59,543 nt of DNA from a virus (IMGVR_UViG_3300003267_000070:1-59543); one strand, 5' to 3'; numbered from the stretch's first letter, positions 12,797-38,528 are shown. A program made the numbers and translations. The notes: a model not told the origin generated them from the sequence alone.

Positions 12797-14620
12797 TTAC
12801 TTCCCTTTATCTCGCGCCTGCTCCAGTGCAGCGACAACGCCATGCAGGTATTCAGGATGCTCTTTGTCGCCCCACCGCGTTTTATCCTTCGCGATTTCGA
12901 TTGCCTTATCCCATACGTCACGCTGCGCCTGTCTTAGTTGTTTATCTCTGGAGGAGAGCGTGTCAGCGACCTTCTCTGCAAGTTGCCGTACTGTCCCGCA
13001 TTCAAGCACGGACGCAACGTTTTCAGGGAGTCCCATTGCCCACAAGCCGACAATCTCTCGTGCTTCATCTTCTACGTCTACCGGCACAGTGGGTGATGGC
13101 TTAGGGGTCACGGAGTCTCCTTAATCGCTATCCGCATAGTACCAACTCATGCGACAGCGCGGGCAAGTTTGAGTACCTTCAAACCAGTGAATCGTCGGAT
13201 CGCCGGGGACGTAGGTTGTTCCTGCGTCCTCGCACTTAAACCAGCCATCCGTATCGGCCCACTCGTGATCGTAGCCGCATGACTCGCAAACGAAGTACGC
13301 GCCGGGATTACACCATGCAATCCACCACTTGCGTGCGGGTGGGCGATTGCCGTGCGACCAGAATAGTTTCTTACCGCCGCGCTTCCACAGCCAACGTCGA
13401 ATCCTTAGCCAGTAGTAACCGAACCAACGCCAGAAAACAGGATGATTAGAATGCCACGCAAGAGAGTCATCGTTTGCTATCGGGCTGAGTGTAAGGTCGT
13501 CGCTCATTCCCCTCGCTCCACTTGCGGACCCTTGTCACGTACGTCAATCATCTTTCCGCAATAAGTACAATAAGATCCATCAAAACCATCGGTCTCGCGT
13601 CCACAAGCAGTCCCGAACCAAGGCGCGCCAGATGCGGTAACAGTGTTTGGTTCAGGTGTCCACACACACGTTTCCGCTACAGGTGGAGCAGCGGGAGTGG
13701 TAGCCTCTAACGCGTTCTTAACGAAAGCCAACAGTTCCCATAGACTGCTTTCCTGCGGCGGCAACTTGCCGTGCTTCCGCTCGTAGAATGGCTCAACCTT
13801 GACAATAAAGCGTTCAAGAAATCGCTGGATATTCGCATCCACCGCAGCCATAGCGCTTGCTGGTGGAGTGCGGGTGAGATCAGCGCGAATGTATTCGATG
13901 TCGTTATCGAAATGCTTGTGCTCGTGAATGCGCGTGTAGCGCGTGACCCCTTGAAACGAACCGTGAACCGATCCGATCCACACTCGTTCTGGCGCTTCTC
14001 CTGCTACCGGGGGATCGATTGATTGTTCGGCGGCCATATCTCCGCACTGTGGGCAGCAGCTGTATGGAGATCCGCTCCAGCGATGGCCGCAAGATAAGCC
14101 GACGCGCTCACCCTGCTCCTGTGGCTCACTCATGATCTACCTTGCCTTTCTGCCTCAGTATCCGGGAGGCGCATACTCATTATCGTGCCGGGTGAGGTAC
14201 GACCATCGGAGTCAATGTCAACCGTGACTGCGCCGCAACGTGAGCACCAGCGTACGACCGTCTCTTCTATTTCAGGACCGTCACGAAACACAATCTCAAG
14301 ATCGTGCCGCCCTCTACACGTAGTCATTCCTTGACCTCAACCTTAAGCTCCGCCAGTTTGGCACGTTGTGCGCGTTCAATTCGTCGCTTCATGCTCAGCG
14401 CTGCGGGTTGTGAGTCGAGTATTTCATCAAACACCTTCAGCAGTTCGGCTGCGAGAGCGGACGGGTCTACAAACCAACTGACCGCTACCTGTGCGTCTGC
14501 TTGCTCGGGGCTGTACTTACTACCAGCGAACGTTCGTGCTTCCGTCTCGCTGGTAAACGCTCTCTCACTCCACGGTTCAGAACCGTAACGACGATAACGG
14601 ACAATCCAGCGTTGGTTCAT
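12797..14620 (-). other. Run of leftward hypothetical ORFs (12797..13111, 13121..13507, 13504..14133, 14130..14327, 14324..~14620)
   Basis: Overlapping start/stop codons, GGAG SDs, CxxC motifs. Confidence 0.6.
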
Positions 14621-15114
14621 TTTCCTTCTACTCCTAACGGGAAATTTAATCGGGCGTGGTTGGGCCATAGCTCAGTAGCGCGTTTGTCCCAGGCCCTAGC
14701 CGCCTCTTCGGGTGTATGGTACGCACCCAGATACTGGGTATATCCGTTGTGTGAAATGACAGCGATCCACTTTCGCTTACCCCGATTGTCGAACTTAACG
14801 CCCCTGAAATGAGACTTCGCGTGTTTATGCTTTTGGCGATTTCTTTGATTCTCCGCGTTCGTTACCATTCTTAGATTAGAGCGAATGTTCCTTAGCCCGT
14901 CACCATCAACGTGATCCACGTCCTTTCCCCTTGGAGCGTTTGTAATAACCCGGTGCATCAGTATCGTTTTGGTTTTTCCTTCTGGATGCTCATGGCGACA
15001 TGCGTAATAGGTGCGATAGCCCTTCATCGCAATCCACCTATAAGCAGCGAGCAGTTCATAGTCTTCGTCATCCACGATCGCCACCTTCCCTTGAGTTAAT
15101 GGTATCTCTTTCAT
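14617..15114 (-). CDS. HNH endonuclease with C-terminal AP2 domain
   Basis: MKEIPLTQGKVAIVDDED; MHR.I....VDH.DGDGL.N.RSNLR; S.FRGV....KW.A.I....YLG.Y.T.EEAARAWD. Confidence 0.9.
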   Translation of the reverse strand: MKEIPLTQGKVAIVDDEDYELLAAYRWIAMKGYRTYYACRHEHPEGKTKTILMHRVITNAPRGKDVDHVDGDGLRNIRSNLRMVTNAENQRNRQKHKHAKSHFRGVKFDNRGKRKWIAVISHNGYTQYLGAYHTPEEAARAWDKRATELWPNHARLNFPLGVEGK

Positions 15115-15118
15115 TTTG

Positions 15119-16948
15119 TTACCTTGAGGGGAGAGCACGAATGTGCGCCGCTATCTCAGCCCTTAGTATTGAATCAACATCAAACACTCGGTCTGCGTAA
15201 ATCGTTTCAGCAATCTTTGCTGCTTCTTCTCTGCTTACCAGTACCTCTCCACTCGACTGCTGAGCCAACGCTGCCTGTACAAACTTCCGGAGGTTGTCAA
15301 CCCTACCGCTCCCGAGTTCACCGCCAATAGAGTCTGCGATGTCCTCATAACGAGTGAGAAACGTCATTGCCGATTCTTTCCACTGCTGGAGTTCACGGAC
15401 GGCGGCGATAAGCCGCGAAACGTGAGCAAGGACAAACCCTGCGTCACGACTTGCTTCAACCTCGGCCAACTCAGCTTCTGGAATCACATCACCCTCCTAG
15501 TCTCCTAATCCACTCCATCACACTTGGCAACAGGAAGACCGTCGCCGCCGTGATGATCAGCATTAAGATCGCAAAGCCGATGTCCGTAAGCCGTTTCACC
15601 GCTTCACCCATCCATCAGACCTGCAAACGTACTCAACCTGGCTGTAGATGATCTGCTCTTCAATGTCTCTTCCACTCGTATGCGACACGGTTAAGACGTC
15701 GCCGTCCTTGCAGGTGGAGGGGACTTGGACTGAAGACTTCTCTTCACTGACAATCCGCTTCCTGACCGTTATGCCGATGAGCATGTTAGTGACCAGCGCC
15801 AAAAAGAACCCTAACGCCAGCATAGCTAAAACGTATTTCAATGATTGTTTCATTTCCCACCTCCAGACCGAGCGCCGCAGTGGCGGGAGATAATTCCCGC
15901 GACACGCTTGCGTTCCGCTTTTGAATCATCACAGCCCCGGCACTCGTCGTAAGAACAATCTTTAATGAAGCAGATGCGCGAGAGACAATCGGGGACGATC
16001 TCTTCCGCGGCTCGTCTAATGGAATCGCTGGACGGGGCGGTGATACAGGTTTCCACTGGTTCGCCTGCGGCAGCAACCAGCTTGCGGAACACTTCAGCGA
16101 TCAACGGCACGAACCCCGGCACCGCTGATGATGCGCCGCCGCTTGTACAAAGTCTGACTGCGCTAATACCGCGCTCGCCTTCAGGGACGGTGATAACGTA
16201 CCAGTCGCCGTTGTTGCCCCATCCGATGCACAATTCAAGCCTGCGCCCGTCGCGGGCGTCCCTGTCGTCGGTGAGATAGCGAGCCTCGCGAACGTTGCCA
16301 TCGGCATCTTTGTTAACCGTAATTCCCTTAGCCATTGCGTTCACCTTTCTCGGCTGGCCTGTAAAACGGACACATACCTTCATCGGCAATAAATTCAGAT
16401 AGGTGCTGTTGCGCCGCCAGTAGCATGCTCTTATTCTTCCGGAAATCATCGCCATGCTGAAAGTGCGTCCACATGGACACCTGGCCATCCGCAAACACGT
16501 CAAACTCCAGCCTCAGCATCGGTTCCCCGCGTTCCTTAACAAGCGCACTCCTTTGCGTCTCAGCTAGCGCCATTAGTTTCACCTTTCCACGGCTTCAACC
16601 CCTGCGTATCACGTCTGTAGATCCACAGCTAGCACAAGAGTTGCTTGTAAACTGTAAGGCTCCGCACTGACCGCAGATGTAGTCTAGCGGTGCAGCCATC
16701 ACCACCGGCTTCAACCCCTGACTTATATAACCCCGCCAGTGTTCTTCTGCCAGTTCCTTGCCGGATTCGGGAGAGGCGCAGGGGTTGGGCGAGTGCTCAA
16801 AACCCCAGAACCATCTCTCGTTGATTTCCCAAATTAAGTAGTCACGCGTTATTCGGGTTCGTGCCCTCCATTTGTAGAAGGAGTCGTTAAGACGCTCCCA
16901 CTGGAGCGGCGCTATAGTGAATAACTGATCAGTCATGGTTGTTGTCAC
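15119..16948 (-). other. Run of leftward hypothetical ORFs (15119..15487, 15596..15853 with TM, 15850..~16335, 16328..16582, 16595..16948)
   Basis: Contiguous minus-strand ORFs with SD motifs. Confidence 0.55.
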
Positions 16949-23880: not shown

Positions 23881-26263
23881 TGGTGCACCTCCACTCCCCG
23901 ACAGGTAGCAAGTACTCGATCTATCATTTCGTCAAGAGGTTCTACCTCCCGTCCGGCTAGGCAATCATCGAGACGCTGACTCATTGCTGCAAATATGCAC
24001 ATTCGCTCGGTGTCGCTTAATTTGTTACCCTTTTGTCGCTGCCGCCACCGTCGAATAAGAACCGCCATGCTGATAACGGTGACCACAAATATCGCTAAAG
24101 TTACTACTATCATCCCCTCACCTCCGTCTGATTTCCTGCGTCGCGTCACGCAGTCTTACGTCGCCGTCGTTTCGGCTTTCGCTCCGCTTCAATTTGCTGT
24201 CTAAGTAGTTCCAGTCCCTTCGCTCTCTGCTCGTTAAGAAACTCTTGTTCCTCCGGTCGCGATTTCAGCGTCACCATCGGCACGCCGAAGTGACCGCCGC
24301 CGTCGCAGACGAATTGCAGCCCGTTGCAGTAAGTGATCGCCGGAGCGCCGCAGAAACACCAGACCGACAGCGCTGAGTCATCACTAATAATTTGTCGATA
24401 CATCCATTGTGGTAAGTTCATCTGCCTGATCTCCTCTCAGGTTATAGCTTCTTTTGCGTCCTACGCCGTGTAGGAGCGATTTCTACCCCCGACCCCTACC
24501 CGTACAGCCTATCGCCACTCTTGACGCCTCCTATCCCTCTAATATGTCCTTTCTGAGCCATTAGAGCGCGTAGGACTGGCGATTACCCGTCGGCAATCAA
24601 ATCCAGCTTTGCGTTTAATTCGACGCGTCTCGCGGCCTCTATTGCGCAGATTTGGGTTTTAGTTCTTCCCCCGTCAGCCTAAGCGCTTCTTTCGCCTGTT
24701 CTATCAACCCCGATCTGCGCATAGTTTCCAAATCGTAGTTACAGTTATCCATTGCAAGGAACAGCTTGAGTGCCTCTACCAGCGCCGGATAGCTATTCGC
24801 CGCCTTGACGAGATAGATAGCATTTGCCCGTGCGTAGTCTCCACCTTCAAACTCGCGGTGATCACCGACGACTGCAACTTGCTCGCCATTCTTCCCGGAT
24901 ATGTTTGTCAGAAACGGGCCGCCTAGTCTCCATGGCAGCGGTGAGTGCGGTTGATTATCATCTATTGTATTCACCGTTTTTTCAACTCTTTCAATATCGA
25001 TTACGATCGCCTTCAAGTCCGCGCCGGTAAAGTCGCCATCAAGCGAAACAATACCGTTGTGGAATTTGACGTAGTTCGCAGCGTTAGAATGCTTCTGAGA
25101 CAACACTGCCTCATTTACGTCTCCTCGCTCGGGCGTTGCATCCGCGCGCTGCACCTTCTCCGTGCGGGCGTTGGCGCGACATATTTCCCTGTCGTTGTGT
25201 GGGTTCAGGCGCTTCTGAGTACCGTAAACAGCAGCAATCGGACAGCCTGTTTCGCTTAGTATCTCGTCACCATCAACGTCGTCACTCTGAATGCGCCACG
25301 GCAACGGTGAACGCTTCGGCTCCGTAGTGGTGGTCGCAGTCACAGGCAGTCTCCGGCATCCATCCCGCTCGCACGTATCCTCTTCAATCGTTATCCACAT
25401 GATCGTTCGCTCCTCTCGTTGGTTAGTGCTGGTCGGTTAGTTCACTAAACTGCAAATCCTCCAGCGCTTCACTGGCAGTTTCCTGCGTGACCGCATCGAT
25501 CTGCCGTACGGTGACGACCCATTTGAACCGCCAAACTCCAGAAGCGTTTTCCCTGTCTGCGACGGCTTGCGCCTGCCGTCTGGTAAGGTAACGTTTGGCA
25601 CCCTTGCGAAATCCCGTGGCAAGTCCGTCTGGTGTCAACCAAAAGCGAGTATTGCGCTGCTTGCCGGTTACAACGTAATGGTTTACAATCATCGTCCCTC
25701 GCTTCTTTGCCGGTGTTGTACTCACCTGAGTTTATCAAACGCACTACTTCCCCTCGTCCGCACCATGAACACGATAAAGAACGGAACGGTCAGGAATACC
25801 GGCTTATTTACGGCTCCCTCCATTCCGCGTAGTCAAACAGTAGTACGTCCTCGGGTTCGGTTTCCGAGTACATTGGCGGCAGGTAGCCCCAATCACCGCC
25901 GAAAGCAACTACTCCAGTTATCGGATTCCAATCAGCCCGGCAAGCAACCGGGAAGTGTCCCGGACTGGTATAGCCATTAAAATCAATGATACAAACCGAA
26001 TCGCTCATAATTTTCTCCGATAAAGAACAGGATGCCGAGTAGTAACGGGTCGTTCATCCTTCGCCCCTCACTCGCCGCTGCGCCGGCCACAGCTCGGTAG
26101 TCTTCCCCCGTGCCGCCAACCGCCCGTCACTATACGTCTCATAAGTCCTGGTGCTGAACTTCAACCCCGCGCGATCCAGTACCGCGCACAGGTCGTCATA
26201 CGCCGTCGCCGCATCTCTTGCACTAACCGTGATACTCACACCCTCAAAAATTACTTCGATCAT
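23877..26263 (-). other. Run of leftward hypothetical ORFs (23877..~24113 TM, 24146..24421, 24639..25400, 25423..25725, 25808..26008, 26054..26263)
   Basis: ORF track; 24639..25400 carries two SPLPW...ANA modules. Confidence 0.55.
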
Positions 26264-26376
26264 TTTCCCTCCTTCGGCTTGCGCCAGTCGTAACTCTTAC
26301 ACCTTGGACATTGCGCCGGTTCCACCGTTCGCTTGAACCACTCATGCCCGCAGCGTTTGCATTTCAGTTTATCCAT
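26260..26376 (-). CDS. 38-aa zinc-ribbon microprotein, leaderless (not in ORF track)
   Basis: MDKLKCKRCGHEWFKRTVEPAQCPRCKSYDWRKPKEGK; ATGA overlap with next gene. Confidence 0.8.
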   Translation of the reverse strand: MDKLKCKRCGHEWFKRTVEPAQCPRCKSYDWRKPKEGK

Positions 26377-26382
26377 GCCGAG

Positions 26383-26411
26383 TATTATACATATGATAAT
26401 AAGTAATACAA
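26383..26411 (-). promoter_or_regulatory. Leftward early promoter with palindromic operator candidate
   Basis: TTGTAT-16-TATAAT; TATTAT-ACATATG-ATAATA inverted repeat over -10 and spacer. Confidence 0.7.
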
Positions 26412-26554
26412 TGGCAGAATTACGCCAAGTTAATAAATTATTTTTCTCCGGTGATCGATTCGGGTATTGACGCTTAACCGGACTGTCCGCGCCGGTCAGG
26501 CTTGCGCCGCAGTTCCCACAGGGAGCCGAGGAAGGGGCTACCGATGCGTCTTAC

Positions 26555-26583
26555 TTGGCTTTGCCTCAAAAACCTGCTATGAT
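26555..26583 (+). promoter_or_regulatory. Rightward promoter for the non-coding region
   Basis: TTGGCT-17-TATGAT with TGn extension. Confidence 0.6.
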
Positions 26584-26589
26584 CCAAAA

Positions 26590-27110
26590 AATCAGATTGA
26601 CCGATGGGTGGATTAGGTTCTTTGAAAGGGGTAAACCGGAGAGCGTCTTAGGTGTTGGACAGCGAACTTGCGTCCACTCCCCTTCAGGAAAGAGTTTGAG
26701 AATTTATCGGATATTCCTAGTACCGATTGCGACAGAAAAGCCTTGGTCGAGTTTCAAACTCCAAGTTACGACGCCCGTCGCTATGGTGGCTGCTACCCAC
26801 TCAAACTCTGCGTCAACGCAACGGCGATTGTAACGCCGATATATGAAGTTGAACAAGGTCGTATTAAAGAATGGGGCTGGATTACTCCGAGCCCCGTTAT
26901 TCACTCGTTTGAGTTACGGTTCTTTGAATCAGGTTTTAGGGGCTCGCGCCCTAACACGGTAAGACCACAATCGTGATTCCCTCTTTCGAGAGTTTTACGA
27001 TAACCCACAAGCGACGGGGAATTCTCAGTGAAAAGGATATTCCACGTTGCTCCTTTCTTTTTCAAATTCGGCTCACGGTGTTAGTAGCATCGTGGGCCGA
27101 TTAGCTTTTC
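26590..27110 (+). ncRNA. Putative ~500-nt structured non-coding RNA / late-operon leader
   Basis: No convincing ORF; two GGTTCTTTGAA boxA-like copies; many nested stems incl. 10-bp AGAGTTTGAG/CTCAAACTCT, a UUCG hairpin and a 14-bp G-U-containing hairpin. Confidence 0.6.
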
Positions 27111-27181
27111 AGCCAACGGAACGGGACAAAGCCGTCTTACTTGCCGCCGTGGTTTATCCCCTTAGGGGTATTGACTTATGA

Positions 27182-27190
27182 TGGTACACT
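27182..27190 (+). promoter_or_regulatory. Extended -10 element TGnTACACT (late-promoter motif, copy 1)
   Basis: Same motif at 35696, 54654 and 57362, each intergenic and upstream of a late gene. Confidence 0.6.
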
Positions 27191-27204
27191 AAGCGCGGCG
27201 CGCA

Positions 27205-27594
27205 ATGGCTGATGAACAATGCCGGCTTCCGATGGTTCCCTGCCCCTTCTACATTCACGAAGGGGATGATTTTTCGCGGACGCTGACCTGGCGGCAAAGG
27301 ACGCATGGGTTGCCGGTTGATCTGACCGATTATCTTGCCGAGCTTTGGGTCAAGCCGACCGATCCTGACGGTGAAGAGTTTCTAGTCAGTTCCAACGGAA
27401 CATCGACGGCGGGAACGTCGATAGCGATTGACGGTCTCAACGGTATCGTAACCATCCTGATTACACGGGCGGTGATTCCCGGTCTAAGTCTTACGTCGGG
27501 GGCGCTTGGAAGGTTCGATCTGACCGACACGGCAAATATCAAGCGGGCGCAATTTCGAGTTCAGTTTATTTACAAGGGGAAATACGAGATCTAG
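27205..27594 (+). CDS. Virion-associated Ig-like protein (BppU-N-like)
   Basis: I.EGDDF...LTW.....PVDLT.Y.A.......G.VTI.IT pattern. Confidence 0.55.
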   Translation: MADEQCRLPMVPCPFYIHEGDDFSRTLTWRQRTHGLPVDLTDYLAELWVKPTDPDGEEFLVSSNGTSTAGTSIAIDGLNGIVTILITRAVIPGLSLTSGALGRFDLTDTANIKRAQFRVQFIYKGKYEI

Positions 27595-27609
27595 GACGTT
27601 AACGAGCCA

Positions 27610-28086
27610 TTGACCCAGGTTATTGACCAGCCCAACACCGTGACGGTACTGATTGACGCGCCTCCGTACCTGGAGTTGCAGCAGGAGGTAATTACCGTCA
27701 ATCTCATCGAGGGGTTGACGGTTATCGACGGTGCCGCACAGGGGCAGCGAGGCCCGGCGGGTACGCCTCGAATCGAAGTCCCCTTCTCGTTCGGTGACGC
27801 GACGCCGTTAACCTTGTTTACGGCACGCGCGGACAAGTTAATCCAGCAAATTTCGGTGTTTATCAATGAGCCCTTTGACGGGCTTGGGCCAATGCTGACG
27901 ATCGGGGATACCGACAACCCATCGTCGCTGATGACCGCTGTTGAAAATAATCCGGCGGAGGAAGCGGTGTATCGGGTGACGCCGAACCTGTCCTACGAAG
28001 CCGACACGCAGGTGCTGTTATTTATCACTCCCGGCCCCGGGGCGTCTCAGGGCTCGGGGTTAGTTGTTGTAGAAACGCAAAACTGA
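27610..28086 (+). CDS. Virion decoration/fibre-like protein
   Basis: Short collagen-like GQRGPAG; C-terminal beta domain paralogous to that of 28099..28788. Confidence 0.55.
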   Translation: MTQVIDQPNTVTVLIDAPPYLELQQEVITVNLIEGLTVIDGAAQGQRGPAGTPRIEVPFSFGDATPLTLFTARADKLIQQISVFINEPFDGLGPMLTIGDTDNPSSLMTAVENNPAEEAVYRVTPNLSYEADTQVLLFITPGPGASQGSGLVVVETQN

Positions 28087-28098
28087 AGGAGAGTCGAC

Positions 28099-28788
28099 AT
28101 GGCCTCAATCTGGCAAGACCTGCTTGGTACGACCAAAACATTCCTGAGAATCGGTTTCTCCGGTCCGCGGCTGAAGGACGTGTCGGGCAACCTGGCCATC
28201 CGCAACCCCGGCGACTCCGCCGACGCCGAGTTGACGACGGCTAAGCTCAACGTCAGTGGTAATGCCGTTGATCTCAACTCCGATGCGGCGGGTGCGGGTG
28301 TCGACTGGAAGTACACTCTGCAACGCCCCTCAAGCGGTATGGGCGCGGCGGTCACGCTTACCCTGCCGCCGGATGACGGCTCCCCTGATCAGGTGCTCAA
28401 GACGGACGGCAGCGGCGTGCTTAGCTGGACGAGCGCGGCGTCCACCGAGGCCAGTGATAAGATTGACACTACTACGCTGGCGTTTGATGCTACGTCGCCG
28501 GTAGCAATGTTTACCCTGCCGGCCAATGCCGTAATCGAAAAGATTCAGGTGATCATCGATACGGCGTTCGACGGCACGCCTTCTGCTTCAGTAGGTATCG
28601 CAGGCACGGTATCGAAGTACCTTGCGGCCACGGAGATCGACCTGACCATGCCCGCAACCACGGTGTTTGAGATCCATCCCGGCGTAGTCGCTCCGGGAGG
28701 AACGGAGGCATTGATTATCACTTACGCGCAAGGTGGAGCGACCGCGGGATCGGCAAGGTTCCTGGTGTTCTACGCAATACCCAGCTAG
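28099..28788 (+). CDS. Virion fibre/decoration-like protein
   Basis: LTLPPDDGSPDQVLKTDGSGVLSW fibre motif; LPANAVI..I.V.IDTAFDG domain; AAGGAG SD. Confidence 0.65.
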   Translation: MASIWQDLLGTTKTFLRIGFSGPRLKDVSGNLAIRNPGDSADAELTTAKLNVSGNAVDLNSDAAGAGVDWKYTLQRPSSGMGAAVTLTLPPDDGSPDQVLKTDGSGVLSWTSAASTEASDKIDTTTLAFDATSPVAMFTLPANAVIEKIQVIIDTAFDGTPSASVGIAGTVSKYLAATEIDLTMPATTVFEIHPGVVAPGGTEALIITYAQGGATAGSARFLVFYAIPS

Positions 28789-28805
28789 GTGGTTAATAGC
28801 GTCTA

Positions 28806-29324
28806 ATGGCTGACGTTTGGTCGGATCTAGTCGGCACCATCAAGTCCGTCTTTCGCGTCGGCTTCGGCAGGGCGGTAATTGACGCCGGTTCCCTCTCTAC
28901 GGAGCGTACATTCACCCTGCCGAATAAAGCCGGTACGGTTGCACTCCTTGACGACGTGGAAGCCAACCCGCCCATTACGCTTGACGCCGCCGAGGATCTG
29001 ACTGCCGGCGACTTGGTAAACATCTTCGACGACTTAGGTACGACGAAAGTCCAGTTAGCCGATGCAAGTGCGAATAAGCAAGCTGACGGGTTTGTAGCCG
29101 AGGATGTTACAAACGGCGATCCCGCGGAGGTATTCAACAGTGGGGTGAATACCGGAGTCTCAGGCTTAACTGGAGGCTTGGAGTACTATCTATCGGCTTC
29201 CACGCCGGGAGGTATTACGGCAACCGCGCCCACCGGCTCAGGCAATCTCGTACAGCGTATAGGCAAGGCGGTGAGTACGACTTCACTACAGTTCAGTAAG
29301 GGAACCGTGTTTAAGCGAGGATAG
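28806..29324 (+). CDS. Virion fibre/cement-like protein
   Basis: RTFTLPNKAGTVALL fibre motif; AAEDL.AGD.V...LADA...GL..G..YYLS..PG.IT domain. Confidence 0.65.
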   Translation: MADVWSDLVGTIKSVFRVGFGRAVIDAGSLSTERTFTLPNKAGTVALLDDVEANPPITLDAAEDLTAGDLVNIFDDLGTTKVQLADASANKQADGFVAEDVTNGDPAEVFNSGVNTGVSGLTGGLEYYLSASTPGGITATAPTGSGNLVQRIGKAVSTTSLQFSKGTVFKRG

Positions 29325-29333
29325 GAGGTTAGA

Positions 29334-29558
29334 GTGATCGTCCTTAGAGAACTACCCATTGAGAGTCTACCCGAGTACACATACGGGCACGGCAGTATTG
29401 ACGTCGTTAATGATTACTCGAAGTATCCGCGTGAAACGCAACCTCCAATCATCGTGGATGGGAATAACGACGTTGTTGACGGTCAGCGCCGGCTAGGAGC
29501 AAGCCGCAAGCGTGGAGATGTAACAATTACGGCGTGGATAGAGGTTTCTGTTACCTGA
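29334..29558 (+). CDS. Minimal ParB/Srx-like protein
   Basis: PPIIVD....VVDGQRRL.A...G...I; GGAGG SD. Confidence 0.6.
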   Translation: MIVLRELPIESLPEYTYGHGSIDVVNDYSKYPRETQPPIIVDGNNDVVDGQRRLGASRKRGDVTITAWIEVSVT

Positions 29559-29567
29559 AGCGATCTA

Positions 29568-30071
29568 ATGGCTCAACGTAACTACCTCGTCTCCACTACC
29601 GGCCTCTCGCTAACCGCCAGTGGTACGACAATCGGTTCCGGCAACGTCTCGGCGGCGGGCTTTGTAGTCGCACGTACGCTGGTCCGCACGGGCCTGACGG
29701 CAGGTGAGCTTGACGGCGCATCTCAGATCTGGACCATCCACTATGTCGTCTCAGCCATGACCACGCCCTATAATATGCGGCTGAAGCTGCAACGGCGTAA
29801 CTCCGGCGGTACGGTACAAAGTGAGTCGTCCTACGGTACGACGAGATCGGCGACAGGTACCTATGACGACAACATTACCTGGGCCTCGGGAGCGTGGGCT
29901 GCGAACGATCAACTAGCCCTCGTCTGGGAACACGAACGGCCTTCGGGATCAGGGAACAAGAACGGAACAATAGACGCCAATGGGGCGAGTTACGTGGACG
30001 CGCCAACGCCGGGATTACCTTTCTTCATTCAACAGGCTAACCTGAGAGGCGGCTTTGATCAAAAAGGCTAA
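29568..30071 (+). CDS. Beta-rich putative virion protein
   Basis: Thr/Gly/Ser-rich, in structural operon. Confidence 0.55.
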   Translation: MAQRNYLVSTTGLSLTASGTTIGSGNVSAAGFVVARTLVRTGLTAGELDGASQIWTIHYVVSAMTTPYNMRLKLQRRNSGGTVQSESSYGTTRSATGTYDDNITWASGAWAANDQLALVWEHERPSGSGNKNGTIDANGASYVDAPTPGLPFFIQQANLRGGFDQKG

Positions 30072-30075
30072 CTAG

Positions 30076-32559
30076 ATGAGACTTGTTAAAAAAGGAGCCG
30101 CTTCACAGACTATTTACCTTGAGGTACTGGACTCCACCTCCATTACCGGCGCTAGAAAGACAGGTCTGGTTTTCAACACCTCCGGCCTCACTGCTTACTA
30201 TGTGCGCAATGGCGGCTCAGCCGCCCAGATCACCCTAGCCGCACTTGCCGCCGCGAACTCCGCATGGTCCAGTGGCGGGTTTAAGGAGGTCGATGCGACG
30301 AACATGCCCGGCGTGTATCGCCTTGACGTTCCCGATGCCGCTTTTGCCGGTGGCGCGGAGAGTGTCGTGGTTACGCTACGAGGCGCAACGGGAATGGTCC
30401 AAGTGTCCGAAGAGGTCCAACTGGTCGCCGTCGATCTTCAAGATGGAGTTCGCCTGGGGCTAACCGCCCTTCCTAACGCCGCGGCCGAAGCCGCCGGTGG
30501 GCTTTACACCCGCGGCTCAGGGGCCGGGCAGATCAATCAGCCCGCCAACGGCATAGTTGACGCAAACGTGGTCCGCAATGCAGGGACGGCCATCACCGCA
30601 GCCTCGGGGGTTCAGGAAGTGAAGGTGCAGAGTATAGCCAACGATGCGCTGACAGCCGCCGCAATCGCCGCCGACGCCATTGGAAGTTCGGAACTGGCCG
30701 CAACGGCTGCATCGGAAATAGCCGGCGCGGTGCGTACCGAACTGACCACGGAACTTGGGCGCGTCGATGTCGCAGTCTCCTCTCGCAGCAGTCACTCGGT
30801 TGCCGACATCTGGAACGCGTTGGTTTCAGGTATCACTACGGCGAACTCCATCGGCAAACGCATCATCGACTTCCTGACGGGAGACGTGTTTGCTCGCCTT
30901 GGCGCGCCTGCCGGAGCGTCGGTAAGCGCGGACGTCGCCTCGTTGCAGAGCGATACCACCAACATCAAAAATCGCCTCCCTGCGGAACTTACGGTAAACG
31001 GCAACATTAAGTCCTCCCTAAGGGAGATCGTCTCAGGCGCTCTGGTGGACCCCGGCGGCGAGATAGCGGAAGCGTTTGAGCATTTCTTCCAGGTGGCGAG
31101 CCCTACGGGCACGGTAAACTCACTACCGGACGCGGCACCGGGAGCGGCTGGAGGGTTGCTCGTGGACGATGTATGGACGGATGAGAGGGCGGCGAAGCTG
31201 GACAACCTCGACACGGCCGTATCGTCACGCGGTACGGGTACGGCTCTTGACGCCGCCGGTGTACGTACCGCTGTCGGGCTGGCTGCCGCCGACCTTGACG
31301 ATCAACTGGAAGCCGTCGTCAACGCGTCGGGCGGCGCTCCTACAATCGGAGAAATTTCATCAACAGTCAGGGCGACTCTCTTCACCGATCGGTTCGGCGG
31401 TACGCCCGCCGCGTCCAACATCGTATTCGCCGATGCGGGCGGCGCGTCCATCGAGGGCTTGGGTCTTTACAAGTCGGTAAGCGGCGGCGCGCCTACGATA
31501 GATACCGCCGTCAAGCCGTCAGGCGCGTACTCCTCCATCAAGTGCGACATTGCCCAATGGGTCAGGGCCGCTTGCCTGGGCAGTGGGAAGATCAGCGTCT
31601 ACTTCTTTACCGAATCTCTGCCTACGGCTAATGAGACATTCCTGTTGCCGGAAGACGATTCAGGTTCTCCCGATCCGGTGATGGACATCCGTATCGGGCC
31701 GGACGGCCTGGTCTACCTGCATCCGGTTGACGCTTCCCCGGAGATTGCAGGCACGCATCCCATCAGTGCGGGCTGGAACCGTATCTCCGTTTGCTTTAAC
31801 AACCACAACACCATCAACAATCTTGACGCCAGGGTCTACGTCAACGGGATGCTGGACATCGCCGTTGACGGACAGGGAACCAATGACATAACCGCGGGAC
31901 AGGTTCGACTACCCGGCCCAACAATTGACGGCGGCCCGTTTTACTTCGCCCATGTCGTCGTGGAAGACGGCGCGGACTTACTCGATCCCGGCAACAGATT
32001 ATGCACGGCCAAGTTCCCCGCCACCGTCAATGAAGACGAGTTCGACACCACGGGCGGCACCGGGGCGGTGAACGAACGCCCGCCGGATGACGCGAACTAC
32101 CGTCAACAGGCAGCCTCCACCCTCGCCCGGCAGAACTACACCTTGCAAGCCGCTGGCGAGGGGGACGTTGACATTACCGGGATGGACGTTGTCGGTTTCA
32201 TGGGCTGGATACGAGGCGGTAAGTCAACCCCGTTCGGCGGCGGCGCTCCCAAAATTACAGTTGACGGCGTGGATTACAACCTGACGCTTACAACCACGGC
32301 CTCGTACGTCACTAAGCCGGTTACACGGTCAGGCTATCCCTCCAATCCCGCCGGTATCGGCATGGTCAGTACGGGTTCCAGTGTTGACGTAACCCTCTTT
32401 GAATGCGGTGTAGTAGTGGTCTATACTCCGCCATTCGTTCCCACGAAGGAAGCGATCGCGGACACCGTGTGGGACGAGAACGTCGGCACCGAACACCAGA
32501 CGGCGGGATCGGCGGGGAACAAGCTGAATCAGGCGCTGGTGCTTTACGAGGGGGATTGA
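30076..32559 (+). CDS. Large fibre-like virion protein with lectin/LamG-like domain
   Basis: N-terminal EVD.TNMPGVYRLDVPDAAF; Ala-rich repeats (D.AVSSR); W.RI.V....VYVNG domain; C-terminal IADTVWDE. Confidence 0.65.
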   Translation: MRLVKKGAASQTIYLEVLDSTSITGARKTGLVFNTSGLTAYYVRNGGSAAQITLAALAAANSAWSSGGFKEVDATNMPGVYRLDVPDAAFAGGAESVVVTLRGATGMVQVSEEVQLVAVDLQDGVRLGLTALPNAAAEAAGGLYTRGSGAGQINQPANGIVDANVVRNAGTAITAASGVQEVKVQSIANDALTAAAIAADAIGSSELAATAASEIAGAVRTELTTELGRVDVAVSSRSSHSVADIWNALVSGITTANSIGKRIIDFLTGDVFARLGAPAGASVSADVASLQSDTTNIKNRLPAELTVNGNIKSSLREIVSGALVDPGGEIAEAFEHFFQVASPTGTVNSLPDAAPGAAGGLLVDDVWTDERAAKLDNLDTAVSSRGTGTALDAAGVRTAVGLAAADLDDQLEAVVNASGGAPTIGEISSTVRATLFTDRFGGTPAASNIVFADAGGASIEGLGLYKSVSGGAPTIDTAVKPSGAYSSIKCDIAQWVRAACLGSGKISVYFFTESLPTANETFLLPEDDSGSPDPVMDIRIGPDGLVYLHPVDASPEIAGTHPISAGWNRISVCFNNHNTINNLDARVYVNGMLDIAVDGQGTNDITAGQVRLPGPTIDGGPFYFAHVVVEDGADLLDPGNRLCTAKFPATVNEDEFDTTGGTGAVNERPPDDANYRQQAASTLARQNYTLQAAGEGDVDITGMDVVGFMGWIRGGKSTPFGGGAPKITVDGVDYNLTLTTTASYVTKPVTRSGYPSNPAGIGMVSTGSSVDVTLFECGVVVVYTPPFVPTKEAIADTVWDENVGTEHQTAGSAGNKLNQALVLYEGD

Positions 32560-32614: not shown

Positions 32615-32944
32615 ATGGCGGGTGGTGTTAAAGGAAATCGCGGGGGGCAAAAGGGCCGCAGTGGTCGCAAGTCGCGGGCTGAGGAACTAGGACTGCAATC
32701 CCTGCTTGACTCTGCGTTCACTCAACAAGATCGGCGAAAGGTAATTGAAAGCTTGATTGCGATTGCGAAGGGAAACGACTTCAAGGCCGCCGTCTCCGCT
32801 GCAACGCTGCTTCTTGGTTACACCTACGGCAAACCGACGGAGCGATACGAACTTGGCGGTCCCAACGGTGGTCCAATTCCCCACTCCGTCACCTTCGAGG
32901 TAGTTGATGGTCGTAACTCGACGACAGGTCAGGATTCGGACTAG
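32615..32944 (+). CDS. terS: Terminase small subunit (putative)
   Basis: GG....SGRK N-terminus, GKP...ELGGPNGGPI C-terminus, directly upstream of terL. Confidence 0.7.
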   Translation: MAGGVKGNRGGQKGRSGRKSRAEELGLQSLLDSAFTQQDRRKVIESLIAIAKGNDFKAAVSAATLLLGYTYGKPTERYELGGPNGGPIPHSVTFEVVDGRNSTTGQDSD

Positions 32945-34115
32945 TCGCGTCTTTGACTTCCTGCGACACTCACCCGCCCGCATTTCTTCCCTTCGCGGCG
33001 GCACTCGTTCCGGTAAGACCTACAACGCGCTTTGCTATTGGGTGTGGCGGCTTGGCAACGAGCAAGGCAAGACCCTGACTATCACCCGCCAGACCATGCC
33101 CGCCCTGCGCGCCTCAGCCATGCGGGACTTCTTTGAGATCCTGGACCGTGCGGAGGTGTATGACGTTAACCTGCACAATAAGACTTCCAACGAGTACCAC
33201 CTGAACGGCAACCTCGTTGAGTTCATCGGGCTTAACGAGTCGATGCGCGTGCGAGGCCGTAAGCGTGACTATCTGTTCTTGAACGAGGCAAACGAATGCG
33301 ACATCGAAGCTTTTCGTCAGCTCGCCTTTCGCACCGCAGACAAGATCATCCTTGACTACAATCCCTCCGAGGCGTTCTCCTGGATCTACGACGACGTAGA
33401 AACTCGCGATGACTGCGATCTACTCGTCACCAACTACCTCGATAACCCGTTTCTTGAGGACAGCCTGATTAACGAGATTGAGCGGTTACAGGATGCCGAC
33501 GAGGAATACTGGAAGGTTTATGGTCTTGGTGAAATCGCTCGCGGCAACACGCGAGTATTTACACACTGGCGGTCTATCTCCGACTCCGAGTACCCTTACA
33601 ACAAGGGTGAAGCGGTCTACGGTCTCGACTTTGGCTATAACAACCCTACCGCACTGGTTGAGACTCGTCTGTATGACAATGCACTATACTGGCGAGAGAT
33701 GCTGTATCAGACAAAACTAACGACGGCTGATTTGGTAGAGAAGTTAAAATTATTTCCCGAACTAAAAGCTCGCAAGATCATCGCCGACTCGGCAGAGCCG
33801 AAGACCATCAAGGAGATCGCGCTTGCCGGGTTTCGCATTGAAGGGGCGGAGAAGGGACCGGACTCCATTATTACCACCATCAACTTTGTCAAGTCCAAGC
33901 CGCTATACATCCTGGACTCGGGCGTGAACATCATACGAGAGATCAAGCGTTACAGTTTCAAGACCGATAAGCAAGGGAAGGTGACGGACGAGGTGGTTCC
34001 ATTCGAGAACCATGCGATGGACGCAGGGAGGTACGGTAGTCGTAGCTTCGCTATTCCACCCTGTGACCGCTATTCCGAGTCCGACAGCCAGACTTGGGGC
34101 GGGAAGAGTTACTGA
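32907..34115 (+). CDS. terL: Terminase large subunit (PBSX/Terminase_3 family)
   Basis: GGTRSGKT, LFLNEANE, YNP, YLDNPFL, GLDFGYNNPTA, ADSAEP, NHAMDAGRY. Confidence 0.95.
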   Translation: MVVTRRQVRIRTSRVFDFLRHSPARISSLRGGTRSGKTYNALCYWVWRLGNEQGKTLTITRQTMPALRASAMRDFFEILDRAEVYDVNLHNKTSNEYHLNGNLVEFIGLNESMRVRGRKRDYLFLNEANECDIEAFRQLAFRTADKIILDYNPSEAFSWIYDDVETRDDCDLLVTNYLDNPFLEDSLINEIERLQDADEEYWKVYGLGEIARGNTRVFTHWRSISDSEYPYNKGEAVYGLDFGYNNPTALVETRLYDNALYWREMLYQTKLTTADLVEKLKLFPELKARKIIADSAEPKTIKEIALAGFRIEGAEKGPDSIITTINFVKSKPLYILDSGVNIIREIKRYSFKTDKQGKVTDEVVPFENHAMDAGRYGSRSFAIPPCDRYSESDSQTWGGKSY

Positions 34116-34300
34116 GAAGGTGTATCAGCATCAAGTGATCTTAAGTATTCCCGCACGCGTTGTGCGGCAAGTCTTAATGTCTCGGTTGCGCTCTCTTCCC
34201 ATAGAGAGTCTTCACCGTCGAAGACGTAATCGCCTTCCGGTTCTGTCTCGTTGATAATTCGATCCACTATGTCAAGTTGTTCATCGGTTAAGACTCGCAT
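34109..34300 (-). CDS. Acidic hypothetical protein (antisense moron)
   Basis: MRVLTDEQLD... with GGAGG SD, downstream of a leftward promoter. Confidence 0.55.
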   Translation of the reverse strand: MRVLTDEQLDIVDRIINETEPEGDYVFDGEDSLWEESATETLRLAAQRVREYLRSLDADTPSQ

Positions 34301-34465
34301 CGCAACACCCTCCCCAGCTCCCTCAACTCCCTTGCTAGTCGGCGGCGAATGCGATAGCGGGTGATTAGTTTGGTGATCATGGTCAGTCTCCATTGTTGTC
34401 GTTGTCGTGCGCCCCGACTCGCCTTGCCCCAGACTACGAACCGAGGCGCACCCCCATGCCGGGGG

Positions 34466-34511
34466 ACTATAACACCTCGCTGTTGACACGTCAATCCTAT
34501 CGTGCTACATT
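34466..34511. promoter_or_regulatory. Overlapping divergent promoters whose -35 boxes form a palindrome
   Basis: TTGACA(34483)-17-TACATT rightward; TTGACG(34494-34489)-17-TATAGT leftward; TTGAC-AC-GTCAA. Confidence 0.85.
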
Positions 34512-34519
34512 CTTGTCCT

Positions 34520-34687
34520 ATGAAGCCACGCGTCAAGGATACGCACATCTATTTTCCCGTCAAAGTGCTGGAGCAGTTAAAGAAACTGGCCGCGGTAAAC
34601 CGGCGCACGGTCAGCGCGGAGATTGTGATTGCGGTTGAGAAGCATGTTGAAACAGAGTCACCGAACGGAAAGCGGGTGAGGAAGTGA
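34520..34687 (+). CDS. Arc-like ribbon-helix-helix repressor, leaderless
   Basis: THIYFP..VLEQLKKLA..NRRTVSAEIV.AVE; ATG 8 nt after -10. Confidence 0.8.
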   Translation: MKPRVKDTHIYFPVKVLEQLKKLAAVNRRTVSAEIVIAVEKHVETESPNGKRVRK

Positions 34688-35663
34688 GTGAGAGTAAGGA
34701 AGTAAGTAATAACAACCCTGTCAGCGGTTGCGCGATGATACTCCTACTTGCGATTGTCGTGGCTATGATTGCGGTTGTCGTATCCGAGGAACTCCGGAAG
34801 CGCGATTACTGGATTCAGGATCTCCAGAAGCGGATTGCGGTACTGGAACAGCGGCAGGGAGGTAGATGAAGAAATGAGCGCTGAAGTTGTTGGATTACGT
34901 ATTAAATGTGACACCTTAGAACGCGCCATTACGATTCCCCGTGTCGATTACGCTATCGGTCCAATAGACGTTACTGACTCAAGGGGTAAACCCAAGTATG
35001 TCATTCGTTGCGAGTGTGGAGAGGTACACCAAGTGGCAATGAAAAGAGCCGCAAAACCAACGCGAACTAAGCTATCGACATCGCGCGGGAAGCAGGCGAG
35101 GAAGACGGGATGAATGAGAGGTACGTAACGGTGATTGTAGTTATGTCGGCTCTTGCTGGTCTAGTGATTGGCGTAGGTTCTTGGAACGCCCACTACGGAC
35201 TAGGTGTAGTCCTGGCGTTGGTAACTATCACGATCATCGGCGACGCCGTCTGTGAATCGAATAAGGAGCGCAAGTGAAACTTGAACCCGCTATACAAGAG
35301 GTTGTGGACAATATCCTACTGGAGATTGAAACAGCAAAGATTCGTATTCCCGACAGCGAAGCCGGCGAGTATATTGATCCATGTCACTGGAGCCGTACCG
35401 GCTGGGCCGTACGGAAAGCTAATGGGAGTTGTACCTGTCGGCCTTGTGAACCGAGTGAATCCGGTAAGGAGCGAGGGTTTACCTCTCTTGGTAGTAGTAA
35501 GTCGCGAGATCGTCATGCTCAATATATTCAAGAGCACCCTAAACAACGATGCCTCAAGTGCGGATTGAAACTGGAGCAGCACACGGTTAAAGAATTTCAG
35601 TACTGCGAGTTTGTGTTAGCGGGATCAGGCAGCGAGACCCTGGTAATGAACCGTCCCGACTGA
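34684..35663 (+). other. Accessory ORFs between terL and portal (TM-coil 34684..34869, Cys-containing ~34874..35113, small TM ORF, Cys-rich 35274..35663)
   Basis: ORF track; overlapping starts/stops downstream of the Arc-like gene. Confidence 0.55.
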
Positions 35664-38161: not shown

Positions 38162-38217
38162 AAGCCCGCTGCTCGAAACTACCGTAATAGTGGTTTCCGG
38201 CGGCGGGCTTTCCTTTT
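38162..38217 (+). terminator. Long (~20 bp) hairpin with U-rich tail: terminator or processing site
   Basis: AAGCCCGCTGCT/GGCGGCGGGCTT + GAAACTAC/GTGGTTTC, then TCCTTTT. Confidence 0.65.
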
Positions 38218-38234
38218 GTAACCGAGGATTGTTA

Positions 38235-38528
38235 ATGCGAGCAGTAAGTCCAGTCATTCCACAAGCGGACGAGGACGAGAAAGTCTACGCGGAAAATCAT
38301 CCAGTCTACGTACCTTTGCCTACGATTAAGCGCGATGATGGCGTTGTATTAACTCGGTGGTTACTTTCAGAAGAGGAAAAACAACTAGTTGCTCGTCGGG
38401 GCTACTTCTATCTGGCCGTAATTACGAACAACAAGCCATTACAGCCATTGAAATTAACAGCAGACGTGCCACCTGAGTTTCAGTATCAACCACTAGACCA
38501 AGAGTGGCCTACTGAAATTGACGGCTAA
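38235..38528 (+). CDS. Conserved phage hypothetical protein
   Basis: YAE..P.Y.PLP.......TRW.LS.EE.......YL...T...PLQP. Confidence 0.65.
   Translation: MRAVSPVIPQADEDEKVYAENHPVYVPLPTIKRDDGVVLTRWLLSEEEKQLVARRGYFYLAVITNNKPLQPLKLTADVPPEFQYQPLDQEWPTEIDG

Follow-up and report, generated by a model that had tools for sequence, protein, structure and literature searches.

A gene-free region was found in the genome of an uncultured root-soil phage available in the IMG/VR database (IMGVR_UViG_3300003267_000070:1-59543; CheckV completeness 98%). The whole stretch of 59,543 bp is referred to below as the window, and all positions are counted from its first letter. According to the lists of open reading frames (ORFs), the gap covers 828 nucleotides (nt; 26377-27204). 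It separates a block of leftward early genes, running from 26376 down to ~2500, from a rightward structural operon that starts at 27205 and includes the large terminase gene (32904-34115) and genes for large downstream proteins. A preliminary description of this DNA had placed here an unnamed, highly structured non-coding RNA of ~500 nt with two boxA-like elements, proposed to be either a new phage RNA or an RNA antiterminator for the late operon. The gap is considered below as a candidate untranslated leader of this operon, and it contains the following features, of which the RNA structures and the promoter are predicted.

26376, minus strand: start codon of the first leftward gene, the left edge of the gap
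26462-26471 and 27166-27175, plus strand: repeat GGGTATTGAC, with no other copy in the window; the first copy is upstream of the predicted transcription start
26547-26557 and 27133-27143, plus strand: repeat CGTCTTACTTG, without further exact copies in the window; copy 1 overlaps the -35 element
26555-26583, plus strand: sigma70-type promoter TTGGCT-17-TATGAT with an extended -10 (TG just before it); start predicted at ~26590
26590-26619, plus strand: small 5' hairpin in the minimum free energy (MFE) structure of a 103-nt piece; its 3' arm enters boxA-1
26616-26627, plus strand: boxA-like element 1 (boxA-1), GGTTCTTTGAAA, ~27 nt past the predicted start
26623-26686, plus strand: domain 1, a GGGG/CCCC stem around two hairpins (inner hairpin 26656-26676); pair probability (P) 0.55 for the outer stem and 0.90 for the inner one
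26691-26809, plus strand: multiway junction with a perfect 10-bp closing stem, AGAGTTTGAG/CTCAAACTCT (6 of 200 shuffles as good)
26774-27018, plus strand: best-defined domain (helix P 0.81-0.98), with the 9-bp long-range helix CCCGUCGCU/AGCGACGGG; contains boxA-2
26799-26806/26907-26914, plus strand: 8-bp helix within this domain, from the ensemble
26809-26820, 26822-26838, 26870-26898, 26932-26966 and 26970-27001, plus strand: hairpins of this domain, the last with a UUCG loop
26918-26928, plus strand: boxA-like element 2 (boxA-2), GGTTCTTTGAA, with a weak 5-bp hairpin of its own and another hairpin 3 nt downstream
27068-27100, plus strand: terminal stem-loop of 15 pairs (3 G-U, 8 GC) with a 3-nt loop, followed by the tail TTAGCTTTTC
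27141-27205, plus strand: helix UUGCCGCCGUGGU/AGCGCGGCGCGCAA (P 0.87), which pairs through the A of the first gene's ATG
27205, plus strand: ATG of the first rightward gene, the right edge of the gap

The sequence GGTTCTTTGAA was found exactly at 26616 and at 26918, both times on the plus strand, as the preliminary description had reported, and these are its only exact copies in 59.5 kb. The core GYTCTTTRA has four matches in the window against 1.57 expected, two of them in the gap, and the two elements share the core GGUUCUUUGAA. In the passages of the cited papers that deal with boxA, the gamma-proteobacterial consensus is given as GYTCTTTAANA (PMC5725501), and the E. coli boxA and the B. 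subtilis rrn consensus are given as UGCUCUUUAACA and AUGAUCUUUGAAA, respectively (PMC13753749). Compared with these published consensuses, boxA-1 departs from GYTCTTTAANA at one fixed position (G for A), and copy 2 (GGTTCTTTGAAT) departs from it at two. The mismatching G shared by both copies is the base present at that place in the B. subtilis consensus, and in RNA form both copies, GGUUCUUUGAAA and GGUUCUUUGAAU, retain the G-Y-UCUUU core together with a Bacillus-type GAA. To judge by its letters and by these passages, the motif fits the boxA consensus as an E. coli/B. subtilis hybrid, and the resemblance to rrn boxA that had been pointed out earlier holds for both copies.

The arrangement is also similar to that of ribosomal RNA (rRNA) operons, since rrn leaders start with a small hairpin and boxA stands directly after it, as the same part of PMC13753749 describes, and a hairpin directly followed by boxA-1 is predicted here. 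Copy 2 is predicted to be preceded by a closed helix and followed by a hairpin. For a ten-position boxA match that is repeated, lies on the correct strand and closely follows a promoter, chance is an unlikely explanation, even allowing for the many motifs that could have been recognised. The probability that the elements function as boxA is, in our estimate, a little over one half.

An odd repeated spacing was noticed next to the two elements. AGAGTTTGA (26691-26699) lies 75 nt after boxA-1, and AGAGTTT (26989-26995) lies 71 nt after boxA-2. The nine bases of AGAGTTTGA are also those with which bacterial 16S rRNA begins; this resemblance was put down to chance, as it extends over 9 nt only and the window had no match to any rRNA model at the gathering score. 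The two stretches from boxA to AGAGTTT, considered as a possible internal duplication, aligned better than shuffles (0 of 300 as good), but only through two anchor words, and because we had chosen these words ourselves, it was not used as evidence. A literature search with the letters of the motif returned unrelated primer lists only.

The promoter TTGGCT-17-TATGAT was present where it had been read before and, in addition, carries the TG of an extended -10. It matches 9 of 12 positions and was the sole promoter-like site in a scan of 25800-27700, where 1.5 sites are expected by chance; since similar sites are frequent by chance, it is not significant alone. The same scan revealed no sigma70-type -35/-10 pair near 27205. 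As no promoter-like site lies closer to 27205, the leader must be transcribed if the site at 26555 serves the operon.

The coding potential of the gap was evaluated with two models, a codon-usage log-likelihood and a second-order Markov model specific to the reading frame, for which 34 long genes of the phage served as the training set. The accepted small genes scored 0.137 bits per codon on average and antisense spurious ORFs -0.127, and the twelve candidate ORFs lying in the gap or overlapping its edges scored from -0.21 to +0.054, below 17 of the 18 accepted small genes. A sliding coding scan of the gap showed no sustained signal. None of nine gap ORFs matched a PHROG family at E<=1, and a 102-amino-acid (aa) ORF (26668-26976, plus strand) had no Pfam or PHROGs match; a search of 5.8 billion clustered proteins returned only itself, as a predicted protein from the same contig. 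With both models scoring its ORFs as non-coding, in agreement with the earlier view, the gap is very probably non-coding.

No known RNA family was recognised either. Rfam gave no match in the whole window at the gathering score, including GOLLD, ROOL, HEARO and riboswitches, in agreement with the earlier statement that no named family could be assigned by eye. At E<=10 the sole Rfam hit in 26300-27300 was an IMPDH RNA on the minus strand, whose 17.9 bits are meaningless beside a gathering score of 95.4. ARAGORN found no transfer RNA or transfer-messenger RNA. Among the 49 ORFs outside the gap, Pfam revealed no N, Q, integrase or repressor family, which agrees with the previous failure to see an N/Q-type protein, and most of these ORFs are without any family. 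The absence of N and Q in the Pfam search keeps a mechanism of RNA plus host factors open; a novel factor is possible, since most ORFs have no family.

The folding of the region was compared with that of shuffled sequences, all E-values and z-scores of the gap being derived from one sequence. The segment 26590-27110 folds on the plus strand with an MFE of -175.4 kcal/mol (z -3.46, with 0 of 100 dinucleotide shuffles as good) and with z -2.70 on the minus strand. In a genome scan of 114 segments of equal length in the candidate's register (both strands, 8 dinucleotide shuffles each), the background had a mean z of -0.12 and a standard deviation of 1.20. The plus strand of the candidate took rank 2 of 228 window-strands (z -3.62), its minus strand took rank 13, and four further windows reached z <= -3; the ranking is flattered, as the boundaries of the candidate were picked by eye, after the fact. 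The best-defined domain, taken as 26770-27022, has z -4.39 on the plus strand and -3.27 on the minus strand, values that are flattered because the boundaries come from the prediction itself. The ensemble of 26585-27210 contains, as its confident helices (P>0.8), the 9-bp helix 26774/27010, the 8-bp helix 26799/26907, several hairpins and the terminal stem. The confident hairpin loops are UCAA, AUUGUAA, UUAC, UCGC, UUCG and the 3-nt loop of the terminal stem, and none of them is GNRA. The 86-nt piece with the UUGCCGCCGUGGU/AGCGCGGCGCGCAA helix reached a z of only -1.67.

A nested junction closed by the AGAGTTTGAG/CTCAAACTCT stem (26691/26800) had been part of the structure described previously. 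The 10-bp inverted repeat is perfect, but the stem has two competing partners, and the fold that it would close is not unique and has a z of -1.98. The stem is not in the ensemble of 26585-27210, where CTCAAACTC pairs with GTTTGAGT at 26907, and in the MFE structure of the 521-nt segment AGAGTTTGA pairs with TCAAACTC at 26755. The GAGTTTGA/TCAAACTC words thus give three mutually exclusive helices. The smaller stems of the preliminary description all appear in MFE or centroid structures of isolated pieces. The fold thus appears better than chance, yet not clearly "ornate", with a thermodynamic signal that is moderate and uneven: the motifs lie where they had been placed, and structure beyond chance was borne out only in part.

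The terminal stem-loop at 27068-27100 has an energy of -24.3 kcal/mol on the plus strand (z -5.91) and of -14.2 kcal/mol on the minus strand (z -3.42); owing to its 3 G-U pairs it is strand-specific, being 10 kcal/mol stronger on the plus strand. It had been described as a 14-bp hairpin at 27069-27099 whose G-U pairs work on the plus strand only; the hairpin is present and has one pair more. The terminator scan, which gave 18 such sites in 20 kb, detected it and none with a longer stem; its U-run is interrupted by AGC. Typical intrinsic terminators have stems shorter than this 15-bp stem. The element may be terminator-like, or it may serve as a processing or attenuation hairpin. Within the hairpin that follows boxA-2, 13 nt (26951-26963) show 85% complementarity to 27072-27084, in the 5' arm of the terminal stem-loop; this would allow an alternative pairing of the antiterminator type, which is not distinguishable from chance.

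A search for relatives, proposed earlier as a check, gave no homologue of the gap in any of the collections searched. The blastn search in distant mode found no match to the gap in 50,697 phage records. The three nearest flanking proteins (129, 69 and 253 aa) had no relatives in IMG/VR viral contigs, and the 129-aa protein had no match in the phage records by tblastn. In viral, metagenome and genome collections, 57 related loci (L004-L060) were gathered around relatives of the terminase (7 viral, 12 metagenome and 0 genome loci), of an 827-aa protein (25 viral and 5 genome loci) and of the D5 primase (3 loci). When whole records of 5 relatives were compared with the gap, the best E was 0.40. 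A pattern scan for boxA twice, spaced as in the gap, matched 2 viral contigs, both by chance in repetitive coding sequence, and a pattern of boxA with the GGGG/CCCC stem gave 0 hits. In the relatives, GYTCTTTRA occurs outside ORFs of at least 80 aa only twice, neither time in a long gap, and the two copies of locus L030 sit within a minus-strand gene. The gap region is so far a singleton from one root metagenome.

Taken together, the gap is best explained as a control region followed by a long, folded, boxA-guarded untranslated leader of the structural operon, and we give this reading about an even chance of being right. Host RNA polymerase would start at the sigma70-type promoter at 26555-26583 and transcribe the small hairpin, boxA-1 (26616) and then ~450 nt of folded RNA carrying boxA-2 (26918), before meeting the strong plus-strand stem-loop ~100 nt ahead of 27205. 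The boxA elements would recruit host NusB-S10 and, with it, NusG and NusA, as happens in rrn operons and at lambda nut sites. NusB/E is recruited by boxA, and the complexes so formed protect the polymerase from Rho (PMC12360218, in its part on boxA); from such established knowledge, a 615-nt untranslated leader would be expected to need this shielding. The elongation complex would resist Rho across the 615 ribosome-free nt and remain processive as it enters the long operon. The stem-loop at the end could then act as a partial terminator, a pause or a processing site and set the transcription entering the structural genes, and the CGTCTTACTTG and GGGTATTGAC repeats would be probable protein-binding DNA sites of the same control region. 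From the preliminary description, the non-coding character, the lack of an Rfam family, the plus-strand promoter and the boxA fit were retained; a discrete, ornate RNA of ~500 nt or an RNA antiterminator was not supported beyond the moderate thermodynamics.

A number of observations weigh against the leader reading. In the full ensemble the pairs of the 5' hairpin reach probabilities of only 0.55-0.60, part of boxA-2 is predicted to be paired, and the boxA comparison covers published consensuses only. No C-rich, G-poor stretch for Rho loading was marked in the gap. Promoter-like sites of the same quality numbered 17 in a 20-kb scan against 10.5 in shuffles. The 5' 103 nt, with the hairpin, boxA-1 and the first domain, fold no better than shuffles (z -0.99). 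The comparison of folding energy with dinucleotide shuffles, which had been named among the possible refutations, favoured the candidate when taken by itself, but rank 1 of 228 belongs to the mostly coding segment 38052-38572 on the plus strand (z -4.41). Among 45-nt windows, 17 loci reach <= -24 kcal/mol and 183 reach <= -18, so that the hairpins of the candidate are ordinary in this respect, and the U-tract after the terminal hairpin is interrupted (UUAGCUUUUC). The 831-nt gap query had no similarity to the 57 related loci by blastn and nhmmer. Locus L030, which shares 27610-32559 with the phage, has no such gap, and L060, which shares the primase and the zinc-ribbon gene, has only ~70 nt upstream of the latter.

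A less likely alternative is that the gap works at the DNA level, as a control region with operators, activator sites or replication iterons between divergent units; the RNA fold would then be incidental and the real promoter of the operon would lie near 27205. Four different exact 10-11-mers are repeated within ~800 nt, the gap has 5 copies of GAGTTT/AAACTC where 0.53 would be expected, and 3 of the 7-mer CGTCTTA against 0.05, but such enrichments are borderline after correction for ~700 tests (best p 1.9e-5). The repeats CGTCTTACTTG and GGGTATTGAC are more likely to be DNA sites, since in each case the first copy stands ahead of the predicted start and outside the predicted transcript. The perfect 13-bp palindrome GAGTTTCAAACTC (26749-26761) allows no good RNA hairpin, TTC-N3-GAA within the boxA-like motif forms a small dyad, a second TATGAT stands at 27177-27182, and the cumulative GC skew turns in the gap. 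However, the loss of 10 kcal/mol by the 27068-27100 hairpin on the minus strand is unlike a DNA palindrome, the missing -35/-10 pair near 27205 leaves the postulated promoter without a sigma70-type candidate, and the boxA fit of an 11-mer repeated on the operon's strand behind a promoter would be a coincidence. The repeats and the palindrome would suit a region that controls divergent units through sites for binding proteins, and this is compatible with the leader model.

It is improbable that the gap encodes a stand-alone RNA of ~510 nt (26590-27100), trans-acting or scaffolding in the manner of GOLLD or ROOL, with the operon served by its own downstream promoter. The promoter, the folded body and the terminator-like stem with a T-rich tail would suit such an RNA, as would the z of -4.39 for 26770-27022, the second rank in the genome scan and the lack of a coding signal. 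On the other side, Rfam gave no match, no separate operon promoter was detected, the architecture is ambiguous with its competing helices, the U-tract is weak and there is no GNRA among the confident hairpin loops. No homologue was found, whereas large functional phage RNAs usually occur in many genomes.

A further version of the leader model is a self-sufficient RNA switch: on the ~0.5-kb leader, the two boxA elements would assemble host Nus factors without a phage N or Q, and the alternative GAGTTTGA/TCAAACTC pairings and the 15-bp hairpin would gate the 30-kb structural operon, so that an rrn-style complex would be taken over for late control. We consider this version improbable, well below the simpler leader.

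Hidden small protein genes or remains of decayed genes are very improbable: two minus-strand candidates (27065-26901 and 26904-26704) overlap by 4 nt in a way resembling translational coupling, they and the 102-aa ORF, which is on record as a predicted protein, have the top scores of the gap (0.054, 0.016 and 0.017, reached by only 7-11% of antisense spurious ORFs), and many true genes of the phage also lack homologues, but all three score below 17 of the 18 accepted small genes, none has the GC pattern of real genes by codon position, all start with TTG or GTG without a usable Shine-Dalgarno sequence, none belongs to a PHROG or Pfam family, and the 102-aa ORF is without a relative among the 5.8 billion clustered proteins.

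The left edge of the gap carries two further features.

26260-26376, minus strand: first early gene, encoding a 38-aa zinc-ribbon peptide with a 57% identical homologue in L060 (4150-4254)
26384-26411, minus strand: TTGTAT-16-TATAAT, likely the early-left promoter, recognised by inspection of the minus-strand sequence

This promoter was missed by the promoter scan, as its -35 matches only 3 of 6 positions. The perfect TATAAT ends 7 nt before the ATG of the zinc-ribbon gene, and the messenger RNA of this gene is therefore probably leaderless or nearly so. In or beside the leftward block, Pfam matched a PD-(D/E)XK nuclease, an AAA_24 ATPase, RusA, two adenine methylases, a D5-type primase-helicase (plus strand) and an HNH-AP2 endonuclease; the last, with HNH_3 and AP2 domains and of the homing-endonuclease type, lies among the early genes at 14617-15138 on the minus strand. 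One of the large proteins downstream of the terminase has beta-helix and carboxypeptidase-regulatory-like Pfam matches and is probably tail-like.

The segment shared with L030 (7311-12337 in that locus, 65-82% aa identity) comprises five genes for proteins of 158, 229, 172, 167 and 827 aa. In L030 these genes follow very large plus-strand genes (1576 and 546 aa, probably tail-like) rather than preceding the terminase; the different neighbours indicate that the five-gene module has moved as a unit, and the phage is mosaic. The first ~140 aa of the 827-aa protein are found again in 25 viral contigs, as well as in metagenome-assembled genomes of five phyla. Neither source gave a host: the single-protein relatives are scattered over metagenome-assembled genomes of five phyla, and the terminases of cultured phages are below 60% identity (best listed ~37%) and belong to many hosts.

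Two other places in the rightward unit drew attention. The strongest 45-nt hairpin (38164-38208, -29.8 kcal/mol) lies at the end of a 236-nt gap before the ORF 38190-38528 (coding score 0.121) and may be a terminator or regulatory stem within the structural operon. The gap after the terminase gene (34115-34770) contains five clustered promoter-like sites on both strands (34466-34563), a minus-strand hairpin of -26.5 kcal/mol (34407-34451) and a minus-strand ORF with a weak coding score of 0.064 (34109-34489), and it has the look of another small point of divergent control.

A search of sequencing runs for the record found a single DNA holder, a root-metagenome sample that is the probable source, and no RNA holder among the listed runs. 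One unbroken contig of this holder (~55.6-55.7 kb) covers the whole gap; coming from the same sample as the record, it is not independent support. The Logan assembly of the run splits at 26224-26239, inside the 69-aa early gene and outside the gap, into contigs of 3.9 kb and 55.7 kb that overlap by 16 nt.

Among known systems, the putative leader resembles those of rrn operons (hairpin/boxB, boxA and boxC, with NusB-S10, NusA, NusG, SuhB and S4). In rrn operons a promoter-proximal hairpin is followed by boxA, and in the phage such a hairpin is predicted before a boxA-like sequence; and as rrn operons have boxA in leader and spacer, the phage has a second copy further along the same untranslated, folded transcript. 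The expected purpose, protection of ribosome-free RNA from Rho, would be the same. Unlike an rrn operon, the phage unit is a structural operon, and its boxA-like sequence combines features of the E. coli and B. subtilis forms as these are given in the cited passages.

Among phage systems, lambda nutL and nutR (boxA and a boxB hairpin, with N and Nus factors) share the boxA in a phage leader and a hairpin, which here stands a few bases after boxA-2 with a loop that we take not to be of the lambda boxB type. In contrast to nut, no N-like protein was found by Pfam among the 49 ORFs, and the elements precede structural genes, not early operons. The T7 early leader consists of host promoters, boxA and an RNase III site, then the first genes. 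It is similar in having a host-type promoter, several hundred untranslated nt with boxA and a strong stem-loop before the first gene; it heads early genes, whereas the unit described here has terminase, portal and tail genes. Late control in lambda runs through pR', 6S RNA and tR' with the antiterminator Q, and places a good sigma70 promoter and a terminated untranslated leader before late genes, to which the predicted promoter, leader and terminator-like stem of the gap would correspond. The present leader is ~3 times longer, no Q family was found by Pfam, the upstream gene is divergent, and no Q-binding or pause element was identified. The HK022 put sites are cis-acting RNA antiterminators of ~70 nt, with two stem-loops directly after the promoter. 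A phage that lacks N could in this way reach processive antitermination through RNA alone, as had been proposed for this locus, but no resemblance to the general description of put was seen. GOLLD and ROOL share the size class and the phage setting; unlike them, the region has neither an Rfam match (gathering score, or E<=10) nor homologues, and an elaborate conserved architecture is not in evidence.

The value of the locus lies in one candidate for a class of boxA-type phage leaders, not in a demonstrated new RNA family. If the leader reading is true, a phage without a recognisable N or Q borrows the host signal of rRNA antitermination to bring polymerase over a long ribosome-free leader to its structural genes. 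This would be one more role of boxA outside rRNA, beside suhB and CRISPR arrays, where boxA is at work according to the relevant part of PMC13753749. Unannotated leaders of this kind may be a common route by which phages evade Rho.

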